From positions 64,001-128,000 of the forward strand of contig CAVPCT010000004.1 of assembly GCA_963702475.1 (NCBI GenBank): a stretch of 64,000 nt of DNA, written 5' to 3'. A program made the position numbers and the translations under genes. Positions 508-61,187 of this stretch are shown here, in pieces. Positions within the stretch are counted from its first letter, which is position 1. Every line of letters begins with the position of its first letter. The notes below the pieces were generated by a model. The model was not told the DNA's origin. It worked only from the letters and a program-made list of their open reading frames with translations, and searched no databases. This stretch comes from an uncultured Thermoleophilia bacterium (GTDB lineage Bacteria; Actinomycetota; Thermoleophilia; UBA2241).

Positions 508-1173
508 TCAAGCGGCGTTTTCGGCCCTCTTCTCCGCGACAAGCTGCGCCGCGAGTGCGACGCCCTCTTCGGCCGTGCCGGCGTACCCGTCCGCACCGAT
601 CTGCACGGCCCATTCCTGGGACACCGGCCCGCCGCCTACCATGACGATGTAGCGCTCTCGGACGCCCAGCTCCGAGAGGATCTCCACGACCTCCTTCTGG
701 CTCGGCATCGTCGTCGTGAGGAGCGCCGACATGCCGATCAGGTCGGCGCCCACTGCTTCTGCTGCATCGAGATAGGCCCCGGCGGACACGTCCGCCCCGA
801 GGTCGTGGACCTCGAAGCCGCGGACCTTGAGCAACATGGCGAAGATGTCCTTGCCGATGGTGTGCACGTCCCCGGCCACGGTGCCCACGACGGCGACCCC
901 TGCGCGCTTCAGGCCTCCGCCCGCCTTCTCGATCTCCGGCTCCAGCACCTGCATGACGGCGTTGAAGGTGTCGGCGGCGGCGATGAGTTCGGGCAGGAAG
1001 CACTCGCCCCTCTGGAACCTGTCCCCGATGGCGGCCATCCCGGCGGACAGACCGTTCTCGACCGCATCCAGCGCGTCGTGGCCCTGAGCCACGACCTGTC
1101 GGGCGACGTCGACGGCGCGCTGCCCGTCCGCCTCGATGATCGCGAGTTTGAGATCCGCGTTGAGTTGGTCCAT
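508..1173 (-). CDS. Methyltransferase cognate corrinoid protein (MtmC/MttC-like)
   Basis: B12 cap domain (GLSAGMAAIGDRFQRGECFLPELI) plus DVHTIG (DxHxxG), SALLTTT and GG motifs; 221 aa. Confidence 0.95.
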   Translation of the reverse strand: MDQLNADLKLAIIEADGQRAVDVARQVVAQGHDALDAVENGLSAGMAAIGDRFQRGECFLPELIAAADTFNAVMQVLEPEIEKAGGGLKRAGVAVVGTVAGDVHTIGKDIFAMLLKVRGFEVHDLGADVSAGAYLDAAEAVGADLIGMSALLTTTMPSQKEVVEILSELGVRERYIVMVGGGPVSQEWAVQIGADGYAGTAEEGVALAAQLVAEKRAENAA

Positions 1174-1300
1174 CTTCCTTCCTCTCAGGTGTCGGGCGCG
1201 GGTGCCGGCTCGGCGTCGGATCGGACGGCGACCAGGTGCGACTCGTCCCGCCCGCAGCCGGCACCCCTGGCCCGCACGACTCCGGGCTGTCGCTGCGTGA

Positions 1301-2674
1301 TCAGACCAGTCGGACTCCCACCTCAGCCAGCTCCCGTGAGACGGACTCGCGGAGACTGACGTACTCCGGGCTGGGCTGCTTGCGATGGATGTCCCAGCAC
1401 TCCTCGTATTTCTGGCCGATCGACGCGGTGGCCAGCGTGCCCTCGTAGCGGTCGAGCAGGCGCCGGACCACGTCGTTGGCCTCTTTGCGCGTCATCCCCA
1501 CCGCCCCGTGGGCCACGTCGCCTGAGAAACGGGGCTCGCTGGGCGTGAAGTGATCGACCTGGGTGCCCTTGGCGCTGCCCGTGGCGGTGACGTGGCCACC
1601 GGAGACGACCGTCGCCATCACGTCGGCAGCGTTCTCGTAGAAGAACATCTCCGTCATGGGACCGTGAGCGGTGTAGTGGTCGACGAAGACGGGGAAGTGG
1701 CTGTTGCGGGTCATGGCCTGCACGCTCACCGACTTGGCCCAGATGGTCTCTCGCGTGCTGGTGCACCCGAGGTTGAAGTGCGTGGGGAAGGTGAGGAGGG
1801 CGTCCGCCTGCAGTGCGATGATGCCGCTGAGGAGATAGGCGGCGTTCGCCACGGCGACGCCCTCCGGCCCGCCGCAGTAGCCGCCGAGGATGGGGGCGCA
1901 CTCCGCGACGAGTCCTCCTCCCGTGCCGATGACCCAGGCCGCCTCGTTCAGCCGCTCATAGCCGAGCTTGAACTCGGCGGTGTGCCCAACGACCCAGGTG
2001 TCGCGGGTCGTCAGGCCGAAGGAGCTGCCGGCGATCTTGGCGACGTCGGACCCGGCGGTCGCGATCGAGTTCATGATGGGCAGCCCGGAGCGGTTGCCGC
2101 GGCGCAGGGCGTCCTTGCCGAGGCCGGTGACCCGCATGGCTGCGATCACCTCGAGTGGAGTCCCGGTGCGGACAGCGCGTCCATTGAAGCTCGCCAGACT
2201 CGGAGCGGTGATCGAGTCGGCCAGCGGCAGATACAGGGCGTAGGCCTCCATGATGCTCGAGTAGAGCTCCTCAGTAGAGACCGGCGCCCCGAGAGCGCCC
2301 AGCCAGCACCACGGCCGGGTGTCCGAGTCCGGCTGCCGCGGCACGAGGGTGCGCTGCTCCTTGCCCTCGCCGAGGACGATCCGGGCCGGGGCATGGTCGA
2401 GCGCGTCCCTGAGCTCGTCGTCCGTGAACCTCATGATGCGCTGCGAATCCGGGCAGTACAGGCCCACGTCCCGGAACAGCTCGAAGCCCGCTTCGAACAC
2501 GCGATCGGCAAGATCGTCATCGTGCGGCACAGGAGTGGAGGGATCGTACCCGATGTCGTGCTCCGCCACGACTTCCTTGAGCTTCGGGACCAGGACCTTC
2601 ATGAAGAAGTCCATCTCTTTGCAGTACCGGCCGGTCATGGCGCGGTCGATGACCTCCAGATAGCTGATCATCAT
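1301..2674 (-). CDS. mtmB: Monomethylamine methyltransferase MtmB family protein, non-pyrrolysine
   Basis: 457 aa from ATG 2674 with RBS. MtmB-like segments VPHDDDLADRVFEAG, PILGGYCGGPEG, TSTRET, GPMTEM, SAKG. No in-frame UAG. Confidence 0.9.
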   Translation of the reverse strand: MMISYLEVIDRAMTGRYCKEMDFFMKVLVPKLKEVVAEHDIGYDPSTPVPHDDDLADRVFEAGFELFRDVGLYCPDSQRIMRFTDDELRDALDHAPARIVLGEGKEQRTLVPRQPDSDTRPWCWLGALGAPVSTEELYSSIMEAYALYLPLADSITAPSLASFNGRAVRTGTPLEVIAAMRVTGLGKDALRRGNRSGLPIMNSIATAGSDVAKIAGSSFGLTTRDTWVVGHTAEFKLGYERLNEAAWVIGTGGGLVAECAPILGGYCGGPEGVAVANAAYLLSGIIALQADALLTFPTHFNLGCTSTRETIWAKSVSVQAMTRNSHFPVFVDHYTAHGPMTEMFFYENAADVMATVVSGGHVTATGSAKGTQVDHFTPSEPRFSGDVAHGAVGMTRKEANDVVRRLLDRYEGTLATASIGQKYEECWDIHRKQPSPEYVSLRESVSRELAEVGVRLV

Positions 2675-2848: not shown

Positions 2849-3034
2849 GTGGGCGGGCCGGCAATTCCGCGCGGCGACCCCCGCGTCGTTCCGGCCGGGC
2901 CGCCCTCCCTCTGGGCGCTCTGAGGCGGGGAGCCTTGCTCGAGTGGCGACGGGGTTGGTACGCTGGCCAGGTCGTAGCCGGGTCCAACGTGCCGCTTGCA
3001 CGCCCGGGATCGCTCACGGAGGCAAGGAGGAGTT

Positions 3035-3670
3035 TTGGCAGTCGAGACACCGCCGGTGGATCCACTGGAGGACCTGCCGCCTACTGCCAGGCGAATCGTC
3101 GAGACGACCCGGCGCCTTCTGATCGAAAAAGGCTACGGCTACCTCAGCATCGAGAACATCGCCAACGAGTGCGAACTCAACAAGACGGCGATCCGCTACT
3201 ACTTCCGGAACAAGGCCGGGCTCATGGAGCTGGTCGTCGACGCCTGGATCTACGACAACATCCGGCATCTCGAATCCTTGTTCGCGATCCCTTCCGAACC
3301 TCTCCTGGGCAACGCTGACAGCGTGCACGCGTTCATGCTGGCCAAGCTGGAGATGATCAAGGACACGGAGACCTACCTGGCGTTTTTCGAACTCCTTCCG
3401 GCATCGCTACGGGATCGGCGGAACAGCGGCCGCATCGAGGATCTGTACGAATGGTCGGCGGAAGCCTATGTGCAGTTGTTCGCCTCGAGCCTTCCCGGCA
3501 TGGATGCGGCACAGATCAGGACCTTCTCCCGACTCCTCTTCGCGGTGGTCGACGGACTGGGTGCGCAGCTCGTGATCTCCTCGGAACGCTTTCCCCCGGA
3601 CCCGCCTCTCGACCTCTTCTCGGAGATCCTCATGGCGTGGGTGCGGTCTCGGCACACACAGAGCGCCTGA
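3035..3670 (+). CDS. TetR/AcrR family transcriptional regulator
   Basis: N-terminal HTH RRIVETTRRLLIEKGYGYLSIENIANECELNKTAIRYYFRNKAGL; TTG start after AAGGAGG. Confidence 0.92.
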   Translation: MAVETPPVDPLEDLPPTARRIVETTRRLLIEKGYGYLSIENIANECELNKTAIRYYFRNKAGLMELVVDAWIYDNIRHLESLFAIPSEPLLGNADSVHAFMLAKLEMIKDTETYLAFFELLPASLRDRRNSGRIEDLYEWSAEAYVQLFASSLPGMDAAQIRTFSRLLFAVVDGLGAQLVISSERFPPDPPLDLFSEILMAWVRSRHTQSA

Positions 3671-4538: not shown

Positions 4539-5486
4539 ATGCTCCGTCTCATCGGTCGCCGGCTGCTGCTCATAGTACCGACGCTGATCCTCGCGTCGAT
4601 ACTGATCTTCGCACTCGCGGAGGTGCTGCCCGGCGACGTGGGACGCTCCATCCTGGGGCCCTACGCCACCCAGGAGCAGGTCGAGATCCTCAACGAGCAG
4701 CTCGGGGCCGACAAGCCGCTCTACGAGCGCTACCTCACGTGGGCCGGCAACTTCGTCACCGGCGACTGGGGCGAGTCGCTCCTCCTCAGGGTACCGGTCT
4801 TCCCCACGGTGATGAAGGCCCTCGGCAACTCGCTCGTGCTCGCCGCCTTCGCCCTCATCATCATCGTGCCGACGTCCATCCTGCTGGGCGTGTGGGCCGG
4901 GCTCAGGCGAGACAGCGTCCTCGACCGCACCATCACCATCTCGACGCTCTCGATGACGGTGATCCCCGAGTTCGTGAGCGGCGTCATCCTCCTCTACGTC
5001 TTCGCGGTGTGGCTCAAGTGGCTGCCGGTCACCGCCATGCCGCCCGACGGCTCGCCCTTCTACGAGCGCCTCTACTACCTCATCCTCCCGGCCATCCCGC
5101 TGATGTTCCTCGAGCTGGGCTACATCGCCAGGATGGCGCGCGTCGGCACCGTGCAGGTGCTCGCCATGCCCTACATCCGCACCGCCGTGCTCAAGGGCCT
5201 GCCGCGGCGCCGGGTCGTCACCGGGCACGTGCTGCGCAACGCCATGGTGCCGACCGTCACCGTCATCGGCAGCCAGGTCGGCTGGCTGATCGGCGGCCTC
5301 GTGGTCATCGAGACGCTCTTCGTCTACCCCGGCATCGGCAAGCTCATGGTCGACGCCGCGCAGACGCACGACCTGCCCATGCTGGAGGCCGCCGTGCTCA
5401 TGGTCGCCATCATCTACATGGTCTCCAACCTCATCGCCGACATCGTCGTTGCCCTGCTCAACCCGCGCATCAGGATGGGCGCCTGA
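4539..5486 (+). CDS. Dipeptide/oligopeptide ABC permease (DppB-like)
   Basis: LPGDV, GDWGES and EAA-like YIRTAVLKGL...HVLRNA, IETLFVYPGIG. Confidence 0.95.
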   Translation: MLRLIGRRLLLIVPTLILASILIFALAEVLPGDVGRSILGPYATQEQVEILNEQLGADKPLYERYLTWAGNFVTGDWGESLLLRVPVFPTVMKALGNSLVLAAFALIIIVPTSILLGVWAGLRRDSVLDRTITISTLSMTVIPEFVSGVILLYVFAVWLKWLPVTAMPPDGSPFYERLYYLILPAIPLMFLELGYIARMARVGTVQVLAMPYIRTAVLKGLPRRRVVTGHVLRNAMVPTVTVIGSQVGWLIGGLVVIETLFVYPGIGKLMVDAAQTHDLPMLEAAVLMVAIIYMVSNLIADIVVALLNPRIRMGA

Positions 5487-5487
5487 C

Positions 5488-6508
5488 ATGGCTGACGAGC
5501 GCCCCACACCCTTCGGCCCCGAGCCGGACCTCGAAGGCCGCACCGGCCAGTTCGGCGACGACCCCGAGATGCTCGAGCTGCGCGCCGAGGCGGCCGCGGC
5601 CGGCCGCGAGGCCGTCCTGCCCGGCACCGGCGCGCGCCAGGAGAAGGTGCTCGAAGCCGACGCCGCGGCGGCGGCCGAGCAGAAGCGCCAGCGCCGCTAC
5701 CTGGTCCGCGCGCTGCTGCGCAGCCCCACCTTCATGACCGGCCTCGTCATCGTGCTCTTCTGGGTGTTCATGGCGGCCTTCTCCACGCTCATCACGCAGG
5801 ACCCCTACGCCCAGGACGCGCTGAACTCGCTGAAAGCGCCCGAGCCCCTCGCACTGGTTCGGCACCGACGACCTCGGGCGCGACGTCTTCGCGCGCGCCA
5901 TGGCGGGCGCGCGCACGGTGCTCATCATCGCGCCCCTGGCGACCGTCCTCGCGCTTCTCTGGGGCGCCGTCATCGGCCTCATCGCCGGCTTCTGGCGCGG
6001 CCTTACCGACGAGGTCATCATGCGTCTCGTCGACGTGCTCCTGGCGCTGCCGATCATCATCACGAGCATCCTCATCCTCTCGCTGCTCGGCACCGGCACG
6101 GCCATCATCATCGTCACCATCGGCGCCCTCTTCACGCCGGTCGTCAGCCGCACCGTGCGCGCCGCCGTGATCGGCGAGCGCGAGCGCGAGTACGTCATGG
6201 CGGCGCGCCTGCGCGGCGAGCGCTCGGCCTTCGTCATGGCCCGCGAGATCCTCCCCAACATCACCCAGCCCATCGTCGTGGAGGGCACCGTGCGCCTGGG
6301 CTACGCGGTGTTCACCGCCGCCACCCTCTCCTTCCTCGGCTTCGGCCTCGCCCCACCCAGCCCCGACTGGGGCCTCACCATCGCCAACCAGCGCGTCTTC
6401 CTGCAGATCGCCCCGTGGACGGTGCTCTTCCCGGCGGCAGCGCTGGCCTCCCTGGTGGTGGCCGTCAACCTCATCACCGACGGTCTCGGAAGGGTGTGGA
6501 GCAAGTGA
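5488..6508 (+). CDS. Dipeptide/oligopeptide ABC permease (DppC-like), one apparent frameshift near 5840
   Basis: Removing one C in GCGCCCGAG restores KAPSPSHWFGTDDLGRD; EYVMAARLRGE, LSFLGFG, PDWG motifs. Confidence 0.9.
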
Positions 6509-8762
6509 GCGCTGAAGAGACCGTCCACAGCAACAGCGCCGCACCGCAAGAGGAGCCCGCCGCCCTCGACGTCCGCGACCTCGAGGTCACGTTCCACCGC
6601 CGCGGACGCGACCTGCCGGTGCTCAAGGGCGTGACCTTGCAGATCGCCCGCGGCGAGGCCTACGGCCTCGTCGGCGAGTCCGGCTGCGGCAAGACGACGC
6701 TGGCCATGGCGGCGATGCGTTACCTGGCCGCCAACGGCACCCTGGACAACGGCCGCGTGCTCGTCGACGGCAAGGACGTCAGCACGCTGGACGACGAGTC
6801 GCTGCGCAAGTGGCGCGGCGGCAAGGTCTCGATGGTCTACCAGGACCCGACGCCAGGCGCTGACCCCGGCGATGCGCATCGGCGACCAGCTCGCCGAGGT
6901 CTACCACTTCCACGAAGGCCTCGACAAGAACGCGGCGATCGAGAAGGCCCGCGAGAGCCTGCGGCGCGTGGCAATCCCCGATCCGGAAGCCACCCTGCGC
7001 CGGTACCCCTTCGAGCTCTCCGGCGGGCAGCAGCAGCGCGTGGTCATCGCCATGGCGCTCTCCGTGAACCCGCGCCTGCTCATCCTCGACGAGCCCACCA
7101 CCGGCCTCGACGCCACCGTCGAGGCCGAGATCCTCGACCTCATCGATGAGCTGCGCGGGCGCATCAACGCCGCCATCCTGCTGATCACGCACAACCTCGG
7201 GCTCGTGGCCCGGCTCTGCGAGCGCGTCGGCGTGCTCTACGCCGGGCGCCTCGTCGAGGAGGGCCCGGCCCGCGACATCTTCACCGACCCGCGCCACCCC
7301 TACACCATGGGCCTCTTCCGCTGCGTGCCGCGCTTCGGCATGAACAAGACCGACGCCGCCCTGCAGACCATCCCCGGCACCCTGCCGGCCCTCGGCGAGC
7401 CGCTCGCCGGCTGCGTCTACTCGGCCCGCTGCCCCATGGCCAAGGACGTCTGCGTGCGCCGCGAGCCCGACCTCTACGCCTACCCCGGCGAGGCGGCACG
7501 CAGGGCTGCGAGACGGCCCTGGCCATGGACCCGGACCCGGCCGCCTACTCGCCGCACCACGCGAACCCTGTGGGCGAGGGCGCGCGCCACACGCGCTGCT
7601 ACTTCCCCGCCGAAGTCGCCGAGATGCCGCAGATGGTCCCCGTGCTGGCCGCCAGCCTCGAGGAGCGCGGCGCCCGCGAGGCAGACGTGCTCAAGATCGA
7701 CGCCGTCGAGCGCACCTTCAAGGACGGGCGCAAGAGGCTCACCGCCGTGCACCAGGTCTCGCTGGCCCTGCAGAAGGGCGAGACCTTCGGCCTCGTCGGC
7801 GAGTCGGGTTCGGGCAAGACCACCTTGGCCAAGTGCGTCACCGGCCTCCTCGCCCCCGACGCAGGCACGATCGAGTTCGAGGGTGGTGCGCTGCGGCCCA
7901 CGGCGGCGAAGCGCTCGCAGGACGCCCTCAGGGCCATCCAGATGGTGTTCCAGAACCCGGACTCCACACTCAACCCGGCGTGGACGACGCGCGCCATCCT
8001 CACGCGCGCCGTGCGCAAGCTGGGCGGCGCGCGGAGCGGCTCCGTGCGCGCCAAGGTCGACAACCTCTCAGCCGGGGTGCGCGTCGAGCCGCGCTTCCTC
8101 TTCCAGAAGCCGATGGAGCTCTCCGGCGGGCAGAAGCAGCGCGTCGCCATCGCCCGCGCCTTCGCCGGCGACCCCACGCTCGTCGTTTGCGACGAGCCCG
8201 CCAGCGCCCTCGACGTCTCCGTGCAGGCCAGCATCCTCAACCTGCTCGTCGAGCTGCAGACGAAGGAGAAGGTCTCCTACGTGTTCATCAGCCACGACCT
8301 CGCAGTGGTGCAGGTACATCTCAGACCGCATCGGCGTGATGTACCTCGCCGAGCTCATCGAGGTCGGCTCCTCGGAAGAGGTCTTCAGCGCCCCACACCA
8401 CCCCTACACCGAGGCCCTGCTCAGCTCCATCCCCAAGCTGGACTTCGAGAGCCCCAGCCAGCGCATCCCGCTGCGCGGGACGATGCCGAGCCTGAGCGAC
8501 CCGCCGAGCGGGCTGCCGCTTCCATACCCGCTGCCACCGCTACCTCGGCGACATCTGCGCGACCCAGGAGCCGCCCGAGCAGGAGACCGGGGACGGCCAC
8601 ATCTACGCCTGCCACATCCCGCCGGACGAGCTCCTGCGGCTGCAGACCGAGACCATGGCGAGCGGCGAGGGCGCGAAGCGCGTCGCCGACATGCAGGCGC
8701 GTCAGGCCGAGGAGATGGCGGCCGGCGAGGCCGCCCTCAGCGAAGGGCCAAGCGCCGGCTGA
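6505..8762 (+). CDS. Fused double-NBD peptide ABC ATPase (DppD/F-like), apparent frameshifts near 6853, 7492, 8310 and 8510
   Basis: Two Walker A (GESGCGKT, GESGSGKT), two LSGGQ and two HPYT plus Cys-rich C-terminal motifs spread over frames; GTGA overlap with the permease. Confidence 0.88.
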
Positions 8763-9092
8763 AGGTGCGTTGCCGAGAACGGCCGCCCCTGCGGGTACCG
8801 TCCTGAGAACGGCCGCCGTCTCGCTCGCGGTCAGACGGAGGGCGTCGAGGTCTACCGACGGGTGCTCAAGTCGACTGAAATGGGACGCACCCCCCAAGGC
8901 GTACCGACAGGGTCCGGCGACAGCCGAGCTGCCGGCTTCCACCTTCGCCACGAGCCCAGTGTGGACAGACGTGGTCAGTTGCCGCCTCCTGCGATCCAAC
9001 AAACCCGGCACACACGCAACGGCGGGTGGTCGAGAAGACCTCACCCGCGGGCGGGCCTGGCTGGCCCCGAGACGAGCCGCGACCGCGGGCCG

Positions 9093-46821: not shown

Positions 46822-46824
46822 GCC

Positions 46825-52356: not shown

Positions 52357-52403
52357 TATCACAATGTGAAAAAAACCTATCATATTGTGGCACTTACAGT
52401 CAA
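52357..52403 (-). promoter_or_regulatory. Promoter with two tandem IclR-type 15-bp operators
   Basis: TATCACAATGTGAAA (52357-52371) and TATCATATTGTGGCA (52378-52392); minus strand TTGACT-N18-TAGGTT with TGn. Confidence 0.65.
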
Positions 52404-52471: not shown

Positions 52472-53272
52472 CTATCGGTCGTGGGGCCTCCGAGGCGGCC
52501 TTCCCGGCTGCAGGCGCAAGTGCTCGCCAAGCCGCTCGCTCAAGCCGCTTGCAGCTGCGAGCACCTCGCGGATCAGGAAGGGCAAGACCGGTTCTGATGC
52601 TCGTTCCGAGGGCGCAGCGATGCTCAAAGCGGCAACGACTCGGCCGCTGCCGTCGAACACAGGGACTCCCACGCCCGTGGCATCCCGATCCACCTCGCCG
52701 CTGGCCACCATGTAGCCTTGTCGCCGAACGCTCTCGATGAGCTCCTCGAGGTGCTCCCGGGTCACCGGCCGCCCATCCGCATATCGCTGGCCGCCGGCCG
52801 ATTCGATCGCACGAGTGATGGAATCCTGGTCCAAGTGCGCGAGGACGGCGACGGCAGACCCGCCGTAGAGTGGAGCGACCGACCACCTGGGCCACGACAC
52901 GCGCATCGGCCGTGGGCTCTCGACAGTCTCGACGCACACCACAGAGGAACCGTGTGGCACGGTGAGAATGGCGGTCTCCCCCGTGCTCTCCGTCAGTTGC
53001 TGCATGAACGGAAGCGCCACCCCAGCGATGTCGCCGCCGATCTGGCCCTGCGCGGACCGCGCCAGGGCGAAGACGGCGGGGCCCATGCCCACTCGACCCC
53101 GCCCGAGTCGGGTAAGCAGGCCGCGACGCTCCAGTGTCTGCACAAGCCGGTACACTGTGCTCTCGGGCACTTGCACCCGCGCGGCGATCTCGGAGGTGGA
53201 GAGCGGAGCGGGGGATGCCGCGACAGCCGCGAGGACGGAGAGTCCGCGGTCGAGGGCCTGAGTTCCCGCCAT
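52472..53272 (-). CDS. IclR family transcriptional regulator
   Basis: QALDRGLSVL, ESTVYRLV, GETAIL, GVGVPVF, AALSI. Confidence 0.93.
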   Translation of the reverse strand: MAGTQALDRGLSVLAAVAASPAPLSTSEIAARVQVPESTVYRLVQTLERRGLLTRLGRGRVGMGPAVFALARSAQGQIGGDIAGVALPFMQQLTESTGETAILTVPHGSSVVCVETVESPRPMRVSWPRWSVAPLYGGSAVAVLAHLDQDSITRAIESAGGQRYADGRPVTREHLEELIESVRRQGYMVASGEVDRDATGVGVPVFDGSGRVVAALSIAAPSERASEPVLPFLIREVLAAASGLSERLGEHLRLQPGRPPRRPHDR

Positions 53273-53723
53273 GATCCCCCCGGGGTCGGTGATGAGGACG
53301 CGATGAAGGCTGCGAGCCGCACGCTCTTCTCATGATGTGGGACCTGCGGCCGCACGGCAAGCATGCCCGAGCTGCGGAGCCCGTTCGAGCAACGTGCCAC
53401 GAACGCTTGCGCGCGCGCTGTCTGGTAGCAGGCGGCCGGCGACGCGCTACCAATTCCGGCGCATGCGCCGCGCAGTCCTCGACGGCGGGCCTTGTCGCCC
53501 TCATGCGATTCCCCTAGCGTTGAGCTATGCCAACGCTCGCCAGCATCAGCGCCGCACCGATCAGCGTGCCGATCGTGGCGCCGCACCGCTTCTCCTTCGG
53601 GCTATTGGAGGATCCGGGCCGGTTGCTCTCCAAGACCGCGCGGCCCCGCGAGCAAGGAGCAGCAGCCTCGTTCTCCCCGTCCAGACCGCTCGCGTCCGGC
53701 GTGGCACAGAGAGGAAGTGGACG

Positions 53724-54812
53724 ATGAAGGGACCGCACACCGCGCCGGTCGAAGGTATCCCGGTCTGGTACACGTACTGCCACCTGATCGATGCGGGTAC
53801 CGTGGACGAGGAGCTTGGCCTTGTTGCGGAGGAGCTCGCGCGGCGCGGCGCGCGTCTCGGCTACTTCCTCGCCGCCCCCGGGCACGACTTCTACCCCCAC
53901 TTCACGCACGAGCTCGACAGCCTCTTCCGCTTCGGCGGCTGCATCCCAGCGATCCACGTGAAGGCCGAGGTGCGTGACACCGTACTCCTCGGCCTGCAGT
54001 GGCTCGCGGAGGGCGGCGGGCTGCTGGTCCGCGCCGGCGAGGGGGTCGACGAGGTGAGCGACCTTCGCGGCAGGAGGATCGGCCTCACCAGAAGCCTCAA
54101 CCCGAGAAAGGTCGACTACCGGCGCGTTACGGACGAGCGCGGCGTGGAGGTCGTGCTCGGGCTCAACGGCGTGAGTCGCGACGACGTCGAACTGGTCGAC
54201 TGCGACCGCGTCGACGACTGGTACGACGCGCCAGAGGCCAAGGTGCCGCTGACCGGGCTCACGGAGTTCTGGAGCCGGTACGGGATCGACCCGGACCTAC
54301 GGCACCGGCCGCTGGTGGCAGAGCTCGAGGCCGGCATCATCGACGCGTGCTTCGTCACCGACCCCTTCGACCTCGGCTACCCGGACTACCCGGGCTTCTC
54401 CCTGATCGGAAGCCTGGCCCGCCACCCCGACTGGACGCTGCAGGTCGGCGGCGCGCCGTATGCGCTCACCTGCACAAGGCCGTTCGCCGACGAGCACCCC
54501 GACCTCGTGACCGCGTACCTTGCGGGTCTCGTGAGAGCCGGCAGGTGGTGCAACGATGATCCATCGGAGGCGGCCCGGCTGCTCGAGACGACCGGCTTCT
54601 ACCTGCCGGCGGAGACCACGCACGCGAAGCTCCGCACCGTCGACTTCGTGCCCAGCCTCTCCGCCGACAACCTGAGGGCCCTCGAGATCGAGAAGGACTT
54701 CATGCTGAGCGGCGGCTGCATCGCGCACGACGTCGACGTGCGCGCGTGGGCCGCGCCGGACTTCCTCACGGCTGCGCACCGCGAGCTCAAGGGGCGGGCC
54801 ACCGGGCCCTGA
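53724..54812 (+). CDS. DszB-like (aryl desulfinase / PBP type 2 fold) protein without a signal peptide
   Basis: YTYC, HFTH, RFGGCIP parallel DszB YSNC, HFTY, RFGGEIP (Cys/His/Arg); DLRGRRIG; WAAPDFL. Confidence 0.7.
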   Translation: MKGPHTAPVEGIPVWYTYCHLIDAGTVDEELGLVAEELARRGARLGYFLAAPGHDFYPHFTHELDSLFRFGGCIPAIHVKAEVRDTVLLGLQWLAEGGGLLVRAGEGVDEVSDLRGRRIGLTRSLNPRKVDYRRVTDERGVEVVLGLNGVSRDDVELVDCDRVDDWYDAPEAKVPLTGLTEFWSRYGIDPDLRHRPLVAELEAGIIDACFVTDPFDLGYPDYPGFSLIGSLARHPDWTLQVGGAPYALTCTRPFADEHPDLVTAYLAGLVRAGRWCNDDPSEAARLLETTGFYLPAETTHAKLRTVDFVPSLSADNLRALEIEKDFMLSGGCIAHDVDVRAWAAPDFLTAAHRELKGRATGP

Positions 54813-54902: not shown

Positions 54903-54933
54903 CCGTTCCCTCGAGCGCCTCGCGGCGCCCGCG

Positions 54934-56538
54934 TCACTCGGTGAAGAACCCCTCGGTGAACGTGGTGTGCGCCCAGTCCGGGTCGAGCACGATGCCGTCG
55001 ACCTTGGCGGACTCGCCGGCGACCCCGGTCAGGACGATGAAGTTCATGATCGGCACTTCCTCCTGGATGAGCGCCTGCGCCTGCTTGTACAGATCGGCGC
55101 GCTCGGCCTCGTCCAGCGCCAGCGGGATCTGCTTGCAGATCTCGTCGAACTCGGCGTTGTTCCAGCGCGAGTAGTTCCACGCCGCGTCGCTCGTGAGCGC
55201 CAGCTTGAAGTACGTGATGGGCGATGCGCGCGTGCCCCAGTCAACGACGCCGAAGTCGGCCTGGTACCAGTTGTCGGTCCCCTTGTCTGCGTAGAAGACG
55301 TCGCTGGGCACCTTGACGATCTCGACGTTGACGCCGATGTCCTTCATCTGCGCCTGCCAAGCGGTGGCGATGGCCGGGATCGGGTCGGCGGTCTGCGCCA
55401 CGAGCTTGATGTCGACGCCGTCGGCGTAGCCCGCATCGGCGAGCATCTGCTTGGCCGCCTCCGGGTCGTAGGCGACGACCTCGGTGTCGGCGTAGTACGC
55501 CTGGTACGCAGGGCCGACGAACGTGCCGTTGCCGGGCTCGCCCACGCCCGGAGCCACCAGGTCGATGATCGCCTGGCGGTCGGTGCCGGCCCACAGCGCC
55601 TGACGGACCTTGAGGTCCTTACCGGCGCCCTGGTCGACGCGGATCTGCAAGCAGTTGAGGTAGTTGGTCACCGACGTGATGGTCTTCAGCATCGGATCGG
55701 ACTCCACGACCTGCTTCTGCTCGGACGTGATGCCGCCCACCCAGTCGAGGGCGCCGCCTTGCAGCCCCTCGATCTGGCCGGCTGTGTCGGGCGAGTAGAT
55801 GAAGTCGACGCCGTCGAAGTAAGGCAGCTGGTCGCCGTTCTCGGCCTTGTCCCAGTACTGCGGGTACTTCACCATCACGGCGCGGTCCTCGGCCGCGAAC
55901 GACTCGAGCATGAAGGGGCCGGTGCCCACGAGCTCGGTCATCGGGTCGGCCACGCTCTTGCAGAGCATCTTGGCGCGGTAGTCGGTCAGCGACGACGGGA
56001 ACTCGGAGTCGACCGCCTTCAGCTTGAACGTGACCTGGGTGGGGCTGTCGGCCACGACCTCCTCGATGTTGGCGTAGACGCCGGCCATCGGCGATTCCTC
56101 GCTCCGCAGGCGCTCGAACGAGTAGATGACGTCGTCGGCCGTGAACGCCTCGCCGTTGTGGAACGTGACACCCTCCTGGAGCACGAACGTCCAGCTCTGG
56201 CCGTCGGGCGAGTCCCAGCTCTGCGCGAGCCACGGCTGCACGCTGAAGTCCGGGGCGAGCTTGACCAGGTTCTCGGTCGCCTGGCACGTCATCAGGATGT
56301 CGCCCACGGACCCGGCCATCATGACGGGGTCGAACTGGCCGTTGCCGGGCTGCATGCCGACACGCAGCGTGCCCCCGGGGACCGGAGTTCCGGCGGCCGG
56401 GCTCTCGCTGGCGCCGCCGCCGCCCTCTTCTTCCGTGCCGCAGCCCACCGCAGCCACCGCCATCGCGGCGATGAGCAGCAGGATGGCTGCGACGGCCAGC
56501 GCCCGGGCCAGCCGTGTCTTCCTCTTGTGCGTGTTCAT
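54934..56538 (-). CDS. Peptide ABC substrate-binding lipoprotein (family 5)
   Basis: Lipobox AVGC; GVTFHNG, GTGPF, WNYSRWNN; 534 aa, intact. Confidence 0.95.
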   Translation of the reverse strand: MNTHKRKTRLARALAVAAILLLIAAMAVAAVGCGTEEEGGGGASESPAAGTPVPGGTLRVGMQPGNGQFDPVMMAGSVGDILMTCQATENLVKLAPDFSVQPWLAQSWDSPDGQSWTFVLQEGVTFHNGEAFTADDVIYSFERLRSEESPMAGVYANIEEVVADSPTQVTFKLKAVDSEFPSSLTDYRAKMLCKSVADPMTELVGTGPFMLESFAAEDRAVMVKYPQYWDKAENGDQLPYFDGVDFIYSPDTAGQIEGLQGGALDWVGGITSEQKQVVESDPMLKTITSVTNYLNCLQIRVDQGAGKDLKVRQALWAGTDRQAIIDLVAPGVGEPGNGTFVGPAYQAYYADTEVVAYDPEAAKQMLADAGYADGVDIKLVAQTADPIPAIATAWQAQMKDIGVNVEIVKVPSDVFYADKGTDNWYQADFGVVDWGTRASPITYFKLALTSDAAWNYSRWNNAEFDEICKQIPLALDEAERADLYKQAQALIQEEVPIMNFIVLTGVAGESAKVDGIVLDPDWAHTTFTEGFFTE

Positions 56539-56663: not shown

Positions 56664-56716
56664 GGTCGGGGAGTCGAGTGCGCGGCGGGGCCGGCGGGCG
56701 CAGCCGGCCCGGCCTG

Positions 56717-58102
56717 TCAGGCCAGGCAATAGGCGTCGAGCCGGCGCCGGACCACCGCGTCCAGGTCGTCAGGCGGCTCGTGTTGTTCCAGTCGGCGCGC
56801 GACTTCGCGTTGTGCGGCGGCGCGCAGCTCCTCGGCGCCGCCGGCCTGCCACTTCTCGAGCGCGTCGCGCATCAGGAGCGAGGCCCTCAGGCGGTCGCGG
56901 GCGTGCCGCCGCGTGTGCGCCTGCCCGAGATAGCCGCCGGCGGGCCCGACGTCGTCGATGACGTCCTCGGCGAGCTGCTCGGCGTCCGCGCCGGCCGGCT
57001 GGGCCGCGACGCGCAGCATCGCGGCCAGCTCGTCGTCCATCACCAGCTTCTCGACCGAGGCGATGTTGAACGAGCTGAGCACACCGGCGCCCTGCATGAT
57101 GAAGTCGGCGCCGGCGCGCATGCCCGCGCCCAGGCAGAGCGCCGACTCGAGCATGGCCTGCGAGTCCGGCAGATGCGCGTCGGTGACGGCCGCTCCAGCG
57201 CGCACCGGCAGGCCGCAGAGGCGTGCCAGGCCGACCGTCGCCTCCGCCATCCCGGCGAACTCGGCCGTGCCGAAAGTCGCGTTGCCCGTGCGCAGGTCGG
57301 ACATGGTCGAGAGGCCCCCATAGACGAACGGGCTCCCCTCGCGGATGCCTTGCGCGATCACGAGGGCGGCCAGCACTTCGGCGTGCTGCACGACGAGCGT
57401 GCCGGCCGGCGTAGCGGGGCCGGTGGTACCGCCCATGGTGCACGCCGTGACGCAGGACGGCTGCCCGAGCCGCGCCCAGCGCAGGAGCATGCGCACGTTC
57501 TCGCCGGCCAGCTGGAGCGGCGACGTCGTGTTGAGGACGATGAGCGCGCGGGGGACGTCGTGCCAGCCCGCGCCCCACAGGATCTCGTTGATGGCGATCG
57601 CGTCGTCGAGGTCCTCCTCGGCACTGGCGATCCACTCGGTGCTCTTGTCGCTCAGCGTGAGCCGGGCGTACGTCGAGCGCCGCGTGCGCTCGTCCTCGGG
57701 CAGGTCGAGCGGTTCGACGGCGTCGGCCTGGAAGCCGACCTGGTCCGAGAGGTGGGCGACCATGGCGACGTCCTCGACGTCCGACAGCCGCCCGGCGCGG
57801 ACCGTGTCACCGTCGAGCACGTAGGCCGGACCGGACACGGTGCCGAGCACGGTCGGCCCCTCGCCGAAGACCAGATCCCGCTCCCGCGAGCGGCCCTTGA
57901 GCACGAACGCCGAGGGCGCGGCGGCCAGCGCCGCCCGCACCGCGTCCTCAGGGATCCACACGCGGCGCCCCACTGCGCGCGCGCCATGGGCCACGAGCAT
58001 GGCGACCGCGTCGTCGTCCTGCACGAGCACGCCGGTGCACGCCAGCACGCGGAACGCCGCCTCGTGGATCGCCTCGATGTCGGTGAGCGAGAACACGGTC
58101 AA
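56717..58102 (-). CDS. MttB family methyltransferase 5, non-Pyl
   Basis: NTTSPL, MGGTTGP, HAEVLA, SDLRTG; Pyl-equivalent region RAGAA-V-TDA. Confidence 0.92.
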   Translation of the reverse strand: MTVFSLTDIEAIHEAAFRVLACTGVLVQDDDAVAMLVAHGARAVGRRVWIPEDAVRAALAAAPSAFVLKGRSRERDLVFGEGPTVLGTVSGPAYVLDGDTVRAGRLSDVEDVAMVAHLSDQVGFQADAVEPLDLPEDERTRRSTYARLTLSDKSTEWIASAEEDLDDAIAINEILWGAGWHDVPRALIVLNTTSPLQLAGENVRMLLRWARLGQPSCVTACTMGGTTGPATPAGTLVVQHAEVLAALVIAQGIREGSPFVYGGLSTMSDLRTGNATFGTAEFAGMAEATVGLARLCGLPVRAGAAVTDAHLPDSQAMLESALCLGAGMRAGADFIMQGAGVLSSFNIASVEKLVMDDELAAMLRVAAQPAGADAEQLAEDVIDDVGPAGGYLGQAHTRRHARDRLRASLLMRDALEKWQAGGAEELRAAAQREVARRLEQHEPPDDLDAVVRRRLDAYCLA

Positions 58103-58115: not shown

Positions 58116-59571
58116 TCACACGTCCGGGACGAACCCGTCCACGATGGCGTCGATGCGCGCCTTGACGTCGTCCGCGAGCGGCGCCGGCTCGTGCTCGGCG
58201 AGGAGCTTCAGTGCCTTGCGGCGGGCTTTCTCGAGGATGTCGAGCCCGCCCTCCTCCTCCCACCGCATGCGCCCCTCACGGTTGATGATCGTCGGTCGCC
58301 ACTGCGCCGAGCGCACATGCCGCTTGGTGTGCTTGTTCCTGAGGAAGTCGCCGCCGGGGCCGACCTGCCGCACCACGTCCACGGCCAGCGTCTCTTCGTT
58401 CACCTCGACGCCGCCCCAGAAGCGGCGGTTCAGTGAGATGAACTCGTCCATGAGCACGACGAGCTCGAGCGAGACCGTCATGCCGAAGTCCATGTAGCCG
58501 AGGTCGTGGTTGAGGTTGGAGCCGACCGCGAGGCTCAGCAGCACGGCCTCCCCGGCCTCCATGCCGGCCTGCGCGTCGACCACCTGTGAATCGGTCGTCC
58601 CGCCGTAGCCCCAGTTGGGGAGGTCCATCCAGCGGGCCAGCTCGGCCGCGCAGACGTAGCCCATGTAGTACTCGGGCGCGTTGTAGGCGGACTGCATGGT
58701 CGCCATGTCCAGCACCGCTGGCCCGATGCCGTAGATGAACGGCGCGCCGGGGCTGCGGAGCTGGTGGACGACGAGGCCCAGCAAGCGACTCCGCCGTGCC
58801 CAGGGCGATGTGCCCGGCCACGGTGATGGGCGCCGTGCCGCCGGCGAGCGGCGCCGTGGAGTACACGAACGGGATGCCCTTGTCGGCGCCGTAGAGGAGC
58901 TTGGCCAGCGACTCGCCGGGGTGCAGGAGCGGGCTCGACGGCTCGCCGTACACGGTGAAGTAGGGCTTCGCGCGGGCCGCATCGACGCCTCCGCGCAACT
59001 CGCAGGTGATCTCCCACATCGCCGCGAGGTCGCCGGCGTTCTCCGCCACCACCACCGGCGGCTTGGTCGAGTTCTCCACCATGGCGCGGAAGCTCTCCAG
59101 CAGCGCCTTGTGCGGGTCGCAGTCGCCGGGGTGCGCGTGCGCCATGACGAAGTCGACGTTGGGGAGAGCGTCGCAGAGCCGCGCCGCCATCACTCCATCG
59201 GCGAGGACGGTGGGCCGGTGCTCACCGGTCTCCAGGTCGTAGACGTTGGTGACCGCCGAGCCGTTGCCGAAGTAGACGTTGTAGCGGCCGAGCGACATGG
59301 CCGGCTCGCCCTCGCGGTCGTAGACCTCGATGACCGGGGGCGCCGTGGCGCGGGCCTGCTCGACGAGCTCGCGGGGCACGCGCACGAGGTCGTCGCCCTC
59401 CACCTCGCAGCCGGCGGCGCGCAGCAACTCCAGGGCCTCGGCGTTGCGGACGCGCTGGCCCACGGTGGCCATGATCTCCAGGGCGGCGTCGTAGATGGCC
59501 GCCTTGTCCTCATCTGTCAGGTAGGTCATGTGGCCGGGGCGGAGCCGCGGCTCGGGACTGGCGTCGGTCAC
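58116..59571 (-). CDS. MttB family methyltransferase 6, non-Pyl, apparent frameshift near 58785
   Basis: YFGNGS, EPSSPL, GGTAPIT, LNHDLGY; Pyl-equivalent region GYGG-T-TDS. Confidence 0.9.
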
Positions 59572-59642
59572 GATTTCTCTCCTCAAAGACGGTCTGCTTC
59601 ACGGGCGCGGCCGCCGCAGCGGGCCGCGCCGGTCACATCATC

Positions 59643-61187
59643 TCAGAGGCGGCGCACGATGGCGGCGAACTGGCCGGCCGCCACGGCCCGCGCCGCCGCC
59701 TCCAGCTCCGGCGCCAGGTAGCGGTCGCGGCCGAGGGTGGGCGCGAAGGTCCTGACGAGGTCGCGCCCCGCTCTGGTCCCGGCGCCGGCTACCAGCGGCG
59801 CCAGCAGATCGATGGCCTGCGCCGCGCACAGCGCCTCGATGCCGAGCACGGCCTGCGCATTGCGCATCACGTCGCGCAGCTTCAGCGCCGAGGTCATGCC
59901 CATGCTCACGTGGTCCTCCTGGTCCCCGGAACTGGGGATGGAGTCGACGCTGGCGGGGTGGCACAGGACCTTGTTCTCGGCGACGAGGGCCGCCGCCGTG
60001 TACTGGGCGATCATGTAGCCGTTGTTGAGGCCGCTGTCGGTGGTGAGGAACGGCGGCAGATCACTGAGGGAGCTGGTCAGCATGCGGAACGTGCGGCGCT
60101 CGCTGATGTTGGCGATCTCGCTCAGGGCCATCGCCGCCAGGTCGAGTGCGAGGGCGAGCGGCTCCCCGTGGAAGTTGCCGGCCGAGATGATCTCGCCGCT
60201 CTCCGGGAACACGAGCGGGTTGTCCGTCACGGCGTCGACCTCGACAGTGACGACCTCGCGCAGCCAGCGCAGCGCGTCGCGGCAGGCGCCGTGCACCTGG
60301 GGGATACAGCGCAGCGAGTAGGCGTCCTGCACCTTGTCGCAGTTCAGGTGGCTGAGCATGATCGCGCTGCCCTCGGTGGCGGCGCGCACGTGGCGGGCCG
60401 TCAGGAGCTGGCCGGGGATCGGGCGCAGCTCCTGGATGCGCGCCTGGAACGGCCCGACGGAGGCGCGCAGGCCCTCCAGGCTCATCGCGCCGATCAGATC
60501 GGCGGAGTCGAGCAGCGCCTCGCCGTCGGCGACTGAGAGGCAGGCGATCGCCGCCATGAACTGGGTGCCGTTCAGCAGGCTCAGGCCCTCCTTCGCCTCG
60601 GGCACGAGGGGCGCGAGCCCGGCGGCCTGCAGAGCAGGCCCGCTCGGCTCGCGCCGCCCGTCGTCCGTGAGCAGTTCGCCCTCGCCCATCATCGCGAGGA
60701 CCAGATGAGCCGACGGGGCGAGGTCGCCGGAGGCGCCCAGCGAGCCACGCGACGGCACCCACGGCACCAGGTCGGCATTGAGCATGGCCGCGACCATCTC
60801 GGCGCAGGCGGCGCGCACGCCGGAGTGGCCACGCGCCATGGTGTTCAAGCGGATGACCATCGCCGCCCGCACGGTCTCACGGCTGAGCGGCTCGCCGACG
60901 CCCACGGCGTGACTGCGCACGAGGTTCTCCTGGAGCTCTTTGACCTTGTCGGCGGGGATGTGCGTGGTGGCCAGCAGGCCGAAGCCCGTCGTGACGCCGT
61001 AGGCGACCTGCTCTTCCGCGATGACGCGGGCGATCACGGCGTGCGCGGCAGCGATGCGGTGCAGCGCGGCCCGGCCCAGGGAGACCTGGGCCCCGCCGCG
61101 CGCGACCGCCACGACCTGCTCGATCGTGAGCGGCGCGTCGCCGATCACCAGCTCGGCGACACCTCGGCCGGGGACCGCCGCGCTCAC
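59643..61187 (-). CDS. hutH: Canonical histidine ammonia-lyase
   Basis: YGVTTGFG, LVRSHAVG (HAL Ser-His), GSLGASGDLAP (MIO), VQDAYSLRC, GNFHG, QEDHVSMG; GTG start overlaps the sucD stop. Confidence 0.94.
   Translation of the reverse strand: MSAAVPGRGVAELVIGDAPLTIEQVVAVARGGAQVSLGRAALHRIAAAHAVIARVIAEEQVAYGVTTGFGLLATTHIPADKVKELQENLVRSHAVGVGEPLSRETVRAAMVIRLNTMARGHSGVRAACAEMVAAMLNADLVPWVPSRGSLGASGDLAPSAHLVLAMMGEGELLTDDGRREPSGPALQAAGLAPLVPEAKEGLSLLNGTQFMAAIACLSVADGEALLDSADLIGAMSLEGLRASVGPFQARIQELRPIPGQLLTARHVRAATEGSAIMLSHLNCDKVQDAYSLRCIPQVHGACRDALRWLREVVTVEVDAVTDNPLVFPESGEIISAGNFHGEPLALALDLAAMALSEIANISERRTFRMLTSSLSDLPPFLTTDSGLNNGYMIAQYTAAALVAENKVLCHPASVDSIPSSGDQEDHVSMGMTSALKLRDVMRNAQAVLGIEALCAAQAIDLLAPLVAGAGTRAGRDLVRTFAPTLGRDRYLAPELEAAARAVAAGQFAAIVRRL

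Follow-up and report, generated by a model that had tools for sequence, protein, structure and literature searches.

The question raised by this locus is whether genes for histidine breakdown and genes for corrinoid-dependent methyl transfer, which lie interleaved along one stretch of the genome of an uncultured Thermoleophilia bacterium from soil or sediment, serve a common pathway. The stretch, referred to here as the window, spans 64,000 nucleotides (C4:64001-128000 of host genome G000; in our own labels G marks a genome and L a fetched locus) and has a G+C content of 70%. Genes were called by codon statistics and named with Pfam and NCBIfam. The window holds three members of the histidine ammonia-lyase (HAL) family and six MttB-family methyltransferases without pyrrolysine (non-Pyl), numbered in window order. 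They are arranged in three units: the hut operon; a string running from 2-oxoacid:ferredoxin oxidoreductase (Kor) and SucCD through HAL3, MttB6 and MttB5 to a solute-binding protein (SBP); and a string of importer, SBP, MttB3 and HAL2, with MttB2 convergent to it. Because MttB adjacency recurs in both Actinomycetota and Chloroflexota loci, the link between histidine-type lyases and corrinoid methyltransferases is accepted as real and conserved in relatives. As to its function, the reading preferred here, which is given about an even chance of being right, is that a hercynine-like betaine is imported and split by HAL2 into urocanate and trimethylamine, both of which would feed the one-carbon (C1) metabolism of tetrahydrofolate (THF); the substrate and the order of the steps are deduced from sequence.

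The proposed first step rests on HAL2 (38640-40067, minus strand; PF00221, 308.9 bits), which reads GAS-DL against GASGDL, the glycine of the 4-methylideneimidazole-5-one (MIO) triad being gone. Its homologues share this deletion of one residue and vary in what stands at the triad: the MIO glycine is absent from all 114 homologues of at least 55% identity and from all 63 wider homologues, which come from the fetched loci of Actinomycetota, Chloroflexota and other phyla. Judged from these alignments, MIO loss is a family trait under selection. The Tyr base, the Gln, Arg and Asn carboxylate binders and the Glu at imidazole N-pi are invariant in all 114 close homologues and conserved in the set of 63. 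The sequence-only reading had described all three HAL paralogues as modified; three are present, and HAL2 alone is altered.

According to the main texts of two preprints, from which the residue roles used here are taken, ergothioneine, hercynine or N-pi-methyl-hercynine is the substrate of the MIO-less enzymes in this family, the products being a urocanate-type acid and trimethylamine (10.1101/2025.08.13.670108; 10.64898/2026.04.22.720169), and in those texts the MIO-less trimethylammonia-lyases are the only family reported for hercynine cleavage. The best solved relative of HAL2, by sequence ranking against the PDB alone, is the ergothionase 6s7j (159 bits, against 136.7 bits for the best HAL); the two share a loop shorter by one residue, the motif QDPL(S/T)(F/Y)R, and (F/Y)E where HAL has FH. 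Since the MIO glycine is absent and an ergothionase is the best solved relative, HAL2 is placed with the MIO-less trimethylammonia-lyases, for which a hercynine-like substrate would fit. The main-text accounts give the specificity position as Lys384 in ergothionase, Asn in the hercynine enzyme of S. woodyi and Gln in SO_3299, which acts on N-pi-methyl-hercynine. This position is Ile in HAL2, and among the 114 family members it is Ile in 103 and Val in 11. Because of this Ile, and of a Thr at the position equivalent to His83 of the Pseudomonas putida HAL, HAL2 is classed as a fourth type and not as an ergothionase. HAL2 itself is absent from the Protein Atlas, and a homologue stored there falls only into generic 'aromatic amino acid lyase' clusters.

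Homologues of HAL2 occur in 47 of 301 sampled genomes of the class, with 24 of 55 in family f1 and 19 of 52 in family f3. A total of 74 loci were fetched from species-representative genomes, including 38 from Actinomycetota and 32 from Chloroflexota, and those that extend 9 kb or more to each side of the lyase (23 and 15, respectively) are treated as full-flank loci. An MttB gene is present in 24 of the 38 Actinomycetota loci and 13 of the 32 Chloroflexota loci; in full-flank loci the counts are 15 of 23 and 10 of 15, the latter within 10 kb. The co-localisation on which the sequence-only reading had staked its proposal is thus found in relatives. Five Chloroflexota genomes were tested and have 4-8 MttB matches per ~3 Mb, so that chance adjacency of an MttB gene in those genomes is a few percent. 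In three of these five genomes (G317, G318 and G319) the MttB beside the lyase scores ~654 bits. The MttB6 type is the partner in 21 of the 38 Actinomycetota loci, and among the 21 family genomes present in both samples a gene of this type lies within 11 kb of the HAL2 orthologue in 10; five of the other 11 have short or edge contigs. Orthologues of MttB2 (72-80% identity) also stand beside HAL2 or HAL4 modules in relatives.

Several of these neighbourhoods bring the lyase together with genes for downstream steps. In G008, genes for an MttB, a corrinoid protein, HutU and the HAL2 orthologue follow one another at distances of 3-30 nt and are succeeded by KorABC and SucCD; the G008 hutU reaches 951.2 bits on the plain hutU equivalog, with the thiourocanate models below their cut-offs. 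In L141 the HAL2 homologue lies between hutU and hutI, and hutU is found within the fetched flanks of 5 of the 38 Actinomycetota loci. The Chloroflexota locus L117 runs in the order MttB, aldehyde dehydrogenase, OpuA-type betaine importer, lyase and IclR regulator, its importer consisting of an ATP-binding cassette (ABC) ATPase with CBS domain, two permeases and an OpuAC binding protein.

A related module surrounds a fourth HAL paralogue of the host, HAL4, which lies outside the window at C4:169708-171204 (L052:9708-11204) and is divergent from an MttB6-type gene. HAL4 scores 495 bits, below the hutH cut-off of 539, and shows Ala-Cys-Gly for Ala-Ser-Gly, NFQG for NFHG and EDF for EDH; the triad Cys is present in 5 of 11 aligned HAL4-type sequences, the host copy included. 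The arrangement of a HAL4-type gene, an IclR regulator, one or two copies of MttB6, MttB5 and an SBP is seen in all six loci fetched from the same genus, each with the HAL4-type gene divergent from an MttB6-type gene, and in none of four loci from other genera. Homologues of IclR 1 of the window (49-52% identity) lie between the HAL4-type and MttB6-type genes in relatives.

The seven methyltransferases reported as non-Pyl by the sequence-only reading are six PF06253 proteins and one PF05369 protein, and none has an in-frame TAG. The MttB genes are located at 20483-22018 (MttB1, minus strand, downstream of the hut operon), 36982-38397 (MttB2, plus), 40311-41852 (MttB3, minus), 50681-52393 (MttB4, minus), 56717-58102 (MttB5, minus) and 58116-59586 (MttB6, minus; split over two frames and intact in relatives). 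Five of them were tested against the Pyl-MttB equivalog and score 281-324 bits, all below the cut-off of 525. At the alignment column of pyrrolysine the five aligned proteins have Trp (as in MttB1), Cys, Asn, Leu or Val; MttB6 was left out, its split halves being too short. In a quick tree with support from the SH-like approximate likelihood ratio test (SH-aLRT) only, the MttB2, MttB3 and MttB6 types form one HAL-associated clade (SH-aLRT 99), MttB4, MttB5 and the lyase-adjoining MttB of Chloroflexota form a second (SH-aLRT 100), and MttB1 and the MttB of the G008 operon are sister to the Pyl clade (SH-aLRT 94).

Substrate positions were compared with those of MtgB, whose glycine-betaine contacts are given in one study as Tyr97, Arg312, His348 and Phe356, with Arg312 binding the carboxylate (PMC13080624). 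The clade of MttB6, MttB2 and MttB3 has Ser, Trp/Phe, His and Gly at these positions (Phe at the Arg312 position in MttB2, Trp in the intact MttB6 orthologue of G086), and the MttB6 type scores 206 bits against MtgB. Because only one of the four contacts is kept, these residues indicate that the MttB2/MttB3/MttB6 clade does not consist of glycine-betaine enzymes. The Arg312 position is kept in MttB5 (Ser, Arg, Gln, Phe) and in MttB4 (Ala, Arg, His, Leu).

To our knowledge, most members of the MttB superfamily have no assigned substrate, and the conserved association of particular clades with lyases of the HAL family, with hutU and with importers for betaines yields a short, testable list of candidate substrates for these proteins, namely hercynine and methylated histidines. 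The single corrinoid gene of the window (508-1173, minus strand) encodes a protein with B12-binding_2 and B12-binding domains, for which MtgC is the best NCBIfam match (200.7 bits, below the cut-off of 310) and which can be called MtgC/MtbC-like; no corrinoid gene lies directly beside MttB2 to MttB6. It is paired with the non-Pyl MtmB homologue (1301-2674, minus strand; PF05369, 285.9 bits), in which the genome search found no internal stop. A 2026 report states that one methanogen needs a non-Pyl MtmB homologue to form methane from tetramethylammonium and choline (PMC13044021).

The hut operon occupies the minus strand and encodes HutU (urocanate hydratase, in two frames, 27630-29458), HutI (imidazolonepropionase, 26266-27576), a cyclodeaminase of FTCD_C/FchA-like type (copy 1, 25623-26222), FtcD (glutamate formimidoyltransferase, 24711-25595) and HAL1, its hutH (23137-24651). 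HutU and HutI, claimed from the sequence to be divergent, are not: HutI scores 357.7 bits on TIGR01224 against a cut-off of 298, and the two HutU halves sum to 590.7 bits (310.1 + 280.6) on the hutU equivalog against 375, with the thiourocanate and S-methyl-thiourocanate models far below their cut-offs. FtcD is likewise above its equivalog cut-off (TIGR02024, 383.7 vs 221 bits). On the hutH model TIGR01225 (cut-off 539.15 bits), HAL1 (669.8) and HAL3 (650.4) pass and HAL2 (253.9) fails; HAL1 and HAL3 both keep GASGDL, with the Ala-Ser-Gly triad intact. By these model scores the hutU-hutI-cyclodeaminase-ftcD-hutH operon is ordinary, and HAL1 and HAL3 are standard MIO enzymes. The imidazole of the substrate is bound by His83 and Glu414 in P. 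putida HAL, according to the preprint main text (10.1101/2025.08.13.670108). HAL3 has both residues. HAL1 has Cys at the first position, where Cys-Cys replaces His83-Ala, and Glu at the second; the Cys is kept in both of two orthologues. A search of 60 family relatives revealed close orthologues of the HAL1-type hut operon (at least 70% identity) in only two, and the operon type may be a recent acquisition.

HAL3 (59643-61187, minus strand) is the usual hutH of the lineage, its motif type being found in 27 of the 29 best HAL loci of relatives; in L085 and L095 the type lies within Kor-SucCD-HAL-hutI-ftcD strings. In the window the sucD stop and the start of HAL3 overlap by 4 nt, and HAL3 is followed directly by MttB6 and MttB5. 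The genes for SucD, SucC and the gamma subunit of the 2-oxoacid:ferredoxin oxidoreductase lie at 61184-63882 (minus strand); its alpha and beta subunits were recognised in G008, at the locus that is syntenic. The sequence-only proposal of histidine-betaine catabolism is supported for HAL2, whose MIO-less type fits a hercynine-like substrate, and not for the hut operon, HAL1 and HAL3, which look suited to plain histidine.

A regulatory connection between units was sought by scanning 30 intergenic regions for shared AT-containing words. The word CGGTCCCACATWTGGGA occurs at 29482-29498, between hutU and the divergent gene for IclR 1 (29543-30529, plus strand), and at 43647-43666, upstream of SBP 2-MttB3-HAL2; the second site is a palindrome with 8-bp arms (CGGTCCCA/TGGGACCG) that lies 39 nt after a permease stop and ~185-235 nt before SBP 2. 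The word has 3 matches against 0.19 expected, a count of 3 that is reached in none of 100 shuffles, which bears out, as an operator-like palindrome, the shared motif noted from the sequence alone. The core TCCCA-N4-TGGGA has only 3 copies in the 4.3-Mb genome, and the third, at C4:427011, is intergenic with a distant ABC ATPase as its sole window-like neighbour. In the host genome the palindrome ties the hut operon to the SBP-MttB3-HAL2 unit, and IclR 1 presumably binds both copies.

The host assembly (4.3 Mb, 9 contigs, 93.8% complete, 6.5% contamination) belongs with metagenome-assembled genomes of Thermoleophilia/Actinomycetota, as judged from the source names of close homologues. A PF06253 search of the genome gives 75 matches and 54 loci with a match of at least 380 aa, of which 26 are on C4, all within the first 235 kb of that contig; the MttB genes of the genome are put at about 54-60. 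The window, with 6 MttB genes per 64 kb, does not exceed the density of this island, and such an expansion is common to the whole of family f1 (54 of 55 genomes). The island contains every HAL-family gene (four) and every hutU gene (two) that the genome has. The methyltransferase count in 64 kb is thus local background, and the confinement of the HAL and hutU genes to the island is the signal. The interleaving of methyltransferases and HAL genes is real, as first noted, and it reflects the genome-wide MttB expansion.

The host also appears to decode pyrrolysine, on the basis of tRNA-Pyl, PylD and TAG at a conserved methyltransferase site. ARAGORN places a tRNA-Pyl(CUA) at C3:641046-641118, adjoined by PylD at C3:640193-640975 (209.1 bits vs a cut-off of 150), and also finds a tRNA-Sec. 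TAG stands at a single shared alignment column in 14 host MttB genes, at least seven full-length MtbB matches carry one TAG each, and the single Pyl-type MtmB (658.6 bits) has one. All Pyl-type methylamine methyltransferases lie outside the window, the nearest at C4:61540-62949, ~1 kb before it. The methyltransferase repertoire is among the largest that we have met in a bacterium, and the corrinoid protein of the window is one of ~24 paralogues in the genome. In the literature searched, Thermoleophilia and pyrrolysine come together in a single paper, with one mention of each. The C1 genes that the sequence-only reading had singled out for a genome check are present, namely acetyl-CoA synthase of the Wood-Ljungdahl pathway, three RamA-like genes and three pterin-binding genes, two of them non-FolP-like. 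The window forms the middle of a catabolic island of ~235 kb, in a Thermoleophilia genome with Wood-Ljungdahl genes and, it appears, pyrrolysine decoding.

From these parts the preferred pathway can be assembled as follows. An N-alpha-trimethylated histidine, that is, a hercynine-like betaine, would be taken up, and cytoplasmic HAL2 would eliminate trimethylamine from it to leave urocanate or a close derivative. The urocanate would pass through HutU, HutI, FtcD and the cyclodeaminase to glutamate and methenyl-THF, and the glutamate would be converted to 2-oxoglutarate, which Kor and SucCD would take by way of succinyl-CoA to ATP. The trimethylamine would be demethylated by Pyl enzymes encoded nearby and elsewhere in the genome, with the methyl groups of the amines delivered by MttB-family enzymes and corrinoid proteins to THF. 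Of the individual units, the hut operon would take plain histidine to glutamate with its formimino carbon moving to THF, and the Kor-SucCD-HAL3 unit would connect the deamination of histidine with the oxidation of 2-oxoglutarate and with ATP formation at the substrate level. The operator shared by the hut and SBP-MttB3-HAL2 promoters would control both. HAL2 points to a first step other than MttB demethylation, namely elimination of trimethylamine that the 14 Pyl MttB genes could use.

For the non-Pyl MttB genes that adjoin the lyases, the methyl donor may be the betaine itself, a ring N-methyl group or the amines that the lyase releases. We consider it possible, and rather doubtful, that the HAL-linked clades (the MttB6/MttB2/MttB3 type and the MttB5 type) demethylate N-methyl compounds derived from histidine and would be the first corrinoid methyltransferases to do so. 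With the lyase, the Hut enzymes, FtcD and the cyclodeaminases they would then make up an undescribed anaerobic pathway, in which the formimino carbon and all three N-methyl carbons of histidine betaine reach THF and the Wood-Ljungdahl pathway and glutamate yields ATP by way of Kor and SucCD. Hercynine, N-alpha- or ring-methylated histidines and the amines freed by the lyase are the candidate substrates.

The preferred reading has to be weighed against the view that the gene sets are not functionally coupled, plain histidine being degraded by Hut, the MttB enzymes serving unrelated betaines or amines, and HAL2 having a side activity or an unrelated role. The abundance of MttB in the genome and on C4, a window density equal to the island background and the plain-histidine scores of HAL1, HAL3, HutI, FtcD and HutU are what such a view would expect. 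Several further observations weigh against the preferred reading. Most genomes of the family hold 14-74 first-look MttB candidates, so some adjacency is expected by chance, and the relatives are not independent. No MttB is present in 8 of the 23 full-flank Actinomycetota loci, and the other neighbours of HAL2 homologues are heterogeneous; loci without MttB contain an amino-acid permease, an amidohydrolase, an ABC exporter, DUF5658, a thioredoxin-reductase-like protein, a phosphonate-type SBP, an esterase or PLD. The operator core was not found in 588,611 bases of relatives' loci, and among public sequencing runs no RNA run carrying window sequence is listed. Uncoupled functions are nevertheless judged unlikely, given the recurrence of the MttB6 type beside the lyase, the frequency of nearby MttB genes in Chloroflexota with few MttB matches in the genomes tested, the tight MttB-corrinoid-hutU-lyase operon of G008, the MttB6-type genes flanking HAL4-type genes throughout the same-genus loci, the confinement of all HAL-family and hutU genes to the island and the operator common to two promoters.

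Other doubts concern the substrate of HAL2 and the order of the steps. The lead of ergothionase over the HALs in the PDB search is only ~22 bits, and the Ile of HAL2 matches none of the three characterised types. At the equivalent of His83, which binds imidazole N-tau, HAL2 has Thr; Ser is the commonest residue in the close family (74 of 114 members), ahead of His (32) and Thr (8). Two of the five Chloroflexota genomes with a homologue give no hutU match (their completeness is not given); the other three have both hutH and hutU. On a plasmid of Pseudorhodobacter turbinis (L198; NZ_CP039965.1, 905791-907119) a MIO-less homologue of 37.6% identity with the loop GSMGQSDM is accompanied by an IclR regulator, two ABC permeases, an HpcH/HpaI aldolase, a flavin reductase, an amidohydrolase and CoA-transferase subunits, an aromatic-acid-like context that suggests another substrate in that lineage. 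Because of the hutU-less Chloroflexota genomes and this context, the lyase family is not uniformly tied to urocanate. The Thr of HAL2, the hutU-less genomes and the Pseudorhodobacter context would suit a HAL2 that is a trimethylammonia-lyase for another betaine, such as that of tyrosine, phenylalanine or tryptophan, with its proximity to hut incidental, as would the hydrophobic residue at the position that reads the imidazole C2 substituent. This explanation is regarded as improbable, in view of the invariant Glu414 equivalent, the His at the His83 position in most of the 63 aligned wider homologues, the plain hutU directly beside the orthologue in G008 and the hutU beside the homologue in L141, and the operator that the HAL2 unit shares with the hut promoter; Pfam annotation of the window also revealed no phenylpropanoid-type downstream genes. 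A lyase-first route has a difficulty of its own: we know of no non-Pyl MttB enzyme that uses trimethylamine, and such a route alone therefore does not explain the conserved adjacency of non-Pyl MttB genes. That adjacency, and not only a Pyl linkage, is accounted for by the route proposed in the sequence-only reading, considered here in a form in which non-Pyl MttB enzymes strip the N-methyl groups of hercynine or methylhistidines one by one onto corrinoid proteins, the MIO enzymes (HAL3, HAL4-type) deaminate the resulting histidine, and HAL2 takes an intermediate such as N,N-dimethylhistidine. Same-genus modules in which a MIO-type HAL is accompanied by as many as three MttB genes, the HAL3-MttB6-MttB5 order of the window and the Trp or Phe at the Arg312 position of the MttB2/MttB3/MttB6 clade, which would remove it from the glycine-betaine enzymes, are in keeping with it. 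The characterised MttB-family enzymes for quaternary amines (MtgB, MtpB, MtcB and MtyB), however, are known to take off only a single methyl group. The dimethyl intermediate is also made less likely by the requirement of related MIO-deficient lyases for a trimethylamino group, as stated in a preprint's main text (10.64898/2026.04.22.720169). Literature searches for MttB with hercynine or ergothioneine, and for 'histidine betaine' with corrinoid, gave no match. The stepwise route is accordingly assigned a low probability.

The remaining features of the window are mostly transport and accessory catabolic genes. The corrinoid protein, ftcD, both cyclodeaminases, both Dpp/Opp-type importers and the M20 hydrolase listed in the sequence-only reading were all recovered with Pfam or NCBIfam; its proposal of dipeptide substrates (anserine, balenine) with a role for M20 drew no support from the analysis. 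A TetR/BetI-type regulator (2996-3670, plus strand) precedes importer 1 (4539-9192, plus), which has two permeases and two ATPases with oligo_HPY domains in broken frames. Importer 2 (43705-47826, minus), also with two permeases and two ATPases, belongs to the HAL2 string. Next to it are a tungsten-type aldehyde:ferredoxin oxidoreductase with a 4Fe-4S protein (48068-50612, minus), MttB4 and IclR regulator 2 (52472-53272, minus). The SBP_bac_5 proteins SBP 2 (41854-43462, minus; two frames), whose stop abuts the MttB3 start, and SBP 3 (54934-56538, minus) lie directly upstream of MttB3 and MttB5, respectively, and share 70-80% DNA identity over four repeat families (41853-43128 vs 54933-56207); by this identity they are taken to be recent paralogues. 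Between the M20 metallohydrolase (30593-31960, minus; N-terminal part frameshifted) and MttB2 lie a LarA-like racemase joined to cyclodeaminase copy 2 (FTCD_C, ~31977-32700) in one 657-aa open reading frame (ORF; 31977-33950, minus), and the AcnX small and large subunits with a D-2-hydroxyacid dehydrogenase (34061-36691, minus).

An Xdh/Cox-type molybdenum hydroxylase with FAD, 2Fe-2S and molybdenum-cofactor subunits (9093-12750, minus) is followed by serine-dehydratase-like, enolase-superfamily (MR/MLE) and class I/II aminotransferase genes (12827-17093). The genes at 9093-17093 are syntenic with HAL2 homologues in other loci, for example L093 and L095; XdhMo-like genes directly follow the lyase in L086, L089, L091 and L142, and matches to the enolase-superfamily gene (24-29% identity) recur near the lyase in Chloroflexota loci. 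Coding-like ORFs without a clear family at 17539-19771, 22145-22606 and 53337-54812 encode a zinc-ribbon protein, two proteins without a Pfam match and one with a weak NMT1-like match.

Frames are broken in hutU, MttB6, SBP 2, a permease, ATPases and the M20 gene. To check for indels, contigs of four public runs were compared with window positions 27500-47400; the best public DNA runs hold at most 0.28 of the sampled window words, and their contigs were used for this check only. Base 44170 is missing in all four runs, 32871 in three, 45740 in two, 31465 and 31494 in one (X1), and 28585 and 28659 in one X1 contig that itself has many other differences from the window. In silico removal of such bases yields a permease of 331 aa, an ATPase of 362 aa, an M20 protein of 455 aa and a LarA-like protein of 401 aa, and without 28585 and 28659 hutU becomes a single 608-aa frame. 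Because the indels match short-read contigs and their removal gives ORFs of normal length, the frame breaks probably stem from assembly indels and do not mark pseudogenes. In the 657-aa ORF the indel at 32871, without which the LarA frame ends at 32744, has probably made two genes look like one LarA-cyclodeaminase fusion; stand-alone FTCD_C genes adjoin HAL2 or MttB5 orthologues in L034 and L191.

Other repeats were also catalogued. A GC-rich stem-loop with 20 identical nt follows the stops of MttB1 (20444-20466) and MttB5 (56690-56712), and similar stem-loops occur after the MtmB homologue (1249-1262) and near the AcnX small subunit (~34069). It has 3 exact copies in the genome and 15 with at most two mismatches. 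The element is read as terminator-like and not as an operator, its probable role being termination of transcription or stabilisation of mRNA. A scan for intergenic 14-mers was dominated by GC-rich words, with a maximum of 10 regions against 6-8 in shuffles, and direct repeats in the window reduced to paralogous coding similarity (SBP 2/SBP 3, HAL1/HAL3).

The sequence-only reading had presented the whole as a candidate undescribed system. This does not extend to the MIO-less lyase type, which is known from a 2019 structure and from preprints of 2025 and 2026; the label can apply only to its coupling with corrinoid methyl capture. In the literature searched, no account turned up of such a lyase joined with corrinoid methyltransferases, plain Hut enzymes and ABC or OpuA importers in anaerobic Thermoleophilia or in Chloroflexota. 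Hercynine, trimethylamine and urocanate were found together in the S. woodyi preprint alone. By the preprint accounts, both hercynine and ergothioneine are widespread compounds, and respiration in Shewanella is the one fate that they describe for hercynine (10.1101/2025.08.13.670108; 10.64898/2026.04.22.720169). If the preferred reading is true, a cytoplasmic, assimilatory hercynine route would be a new sink for these compounds in anoxic soils and sediments, and one that consumes trimethylamine instead of releasing it.

Among known systems, the formiminoglutamate Hut pathway is matched by the window operon, which unites hutH, hutU, hutI, ftcD and a cyclodeaminase; the operon differs in the Cys of HAL1 at the His83 position and in its rarity among family relatives. 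With the non-Pyl systems for quaternary amines (MtgB/MtgC/MtgA for glycine betaine; MtpB, MtcB and MtyB of Eubacterium limosum), the host shares PF06253 proteins without pyrrolysine, corrinoid, RamA-like and pterin-methyltransferase genes in its genome, and the setting of an anaerobe with the Wood-Ljungdahl pathway. No window MttB is close to a characterised member, however, and the HAL-linked clade lacks Arg312, Tyr97 and Phe356 of MtgB; the literature searched shows no non-Pyl MttB that is linked with lyases of the HAL family and with hut genes. The TAG-bearing MttB, MtbB and MtmB copies of the host resemble the known Pyl enzymes and could consume lyase-derived trimethylamine. Ergothionases are known from Treponema denticola (6s7j) and S. 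oneidensis (SO_3057); 6s7j shares with HAL2 the shortened MIO loop, QDPL(S/T)(F/Y)R and (F/Y)E, but the thiolate-binding Lys384 is Ile in HAL2 (Asn in the Shewanella hercynine enzyme, according to the preprint main text). The ergothioneine pathway uses a thiourocanate hydratase, whereas hutU is of the plain type in both the host window and G008. The closest functional parallel is Swoo_3913 of S. woodyi, reported in the main text of the preprint to convert hercynine anaerobically to urocanate and trimethylamine; like HAL2 it has a HAL fold without the Ala-Ser-Gly triad, and the Tyr base and the residues that bind carboxylate and imidazole are in place (10.1101/2025.08.13.670108), although HAL2 has Thr for the His at imidazole N-tau. 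As described there, Swoo_3913 is periplasmic and feeds a respiratory urocanate reductase, whereas HAL2 has no N-terminal extension and no reductase neighbour. Because HAL2 sits instead with an ABC importer, Hut enzymes and corrinoid methyltransferases, its context indicates assimilation of carbon and C1 units, not respiration.

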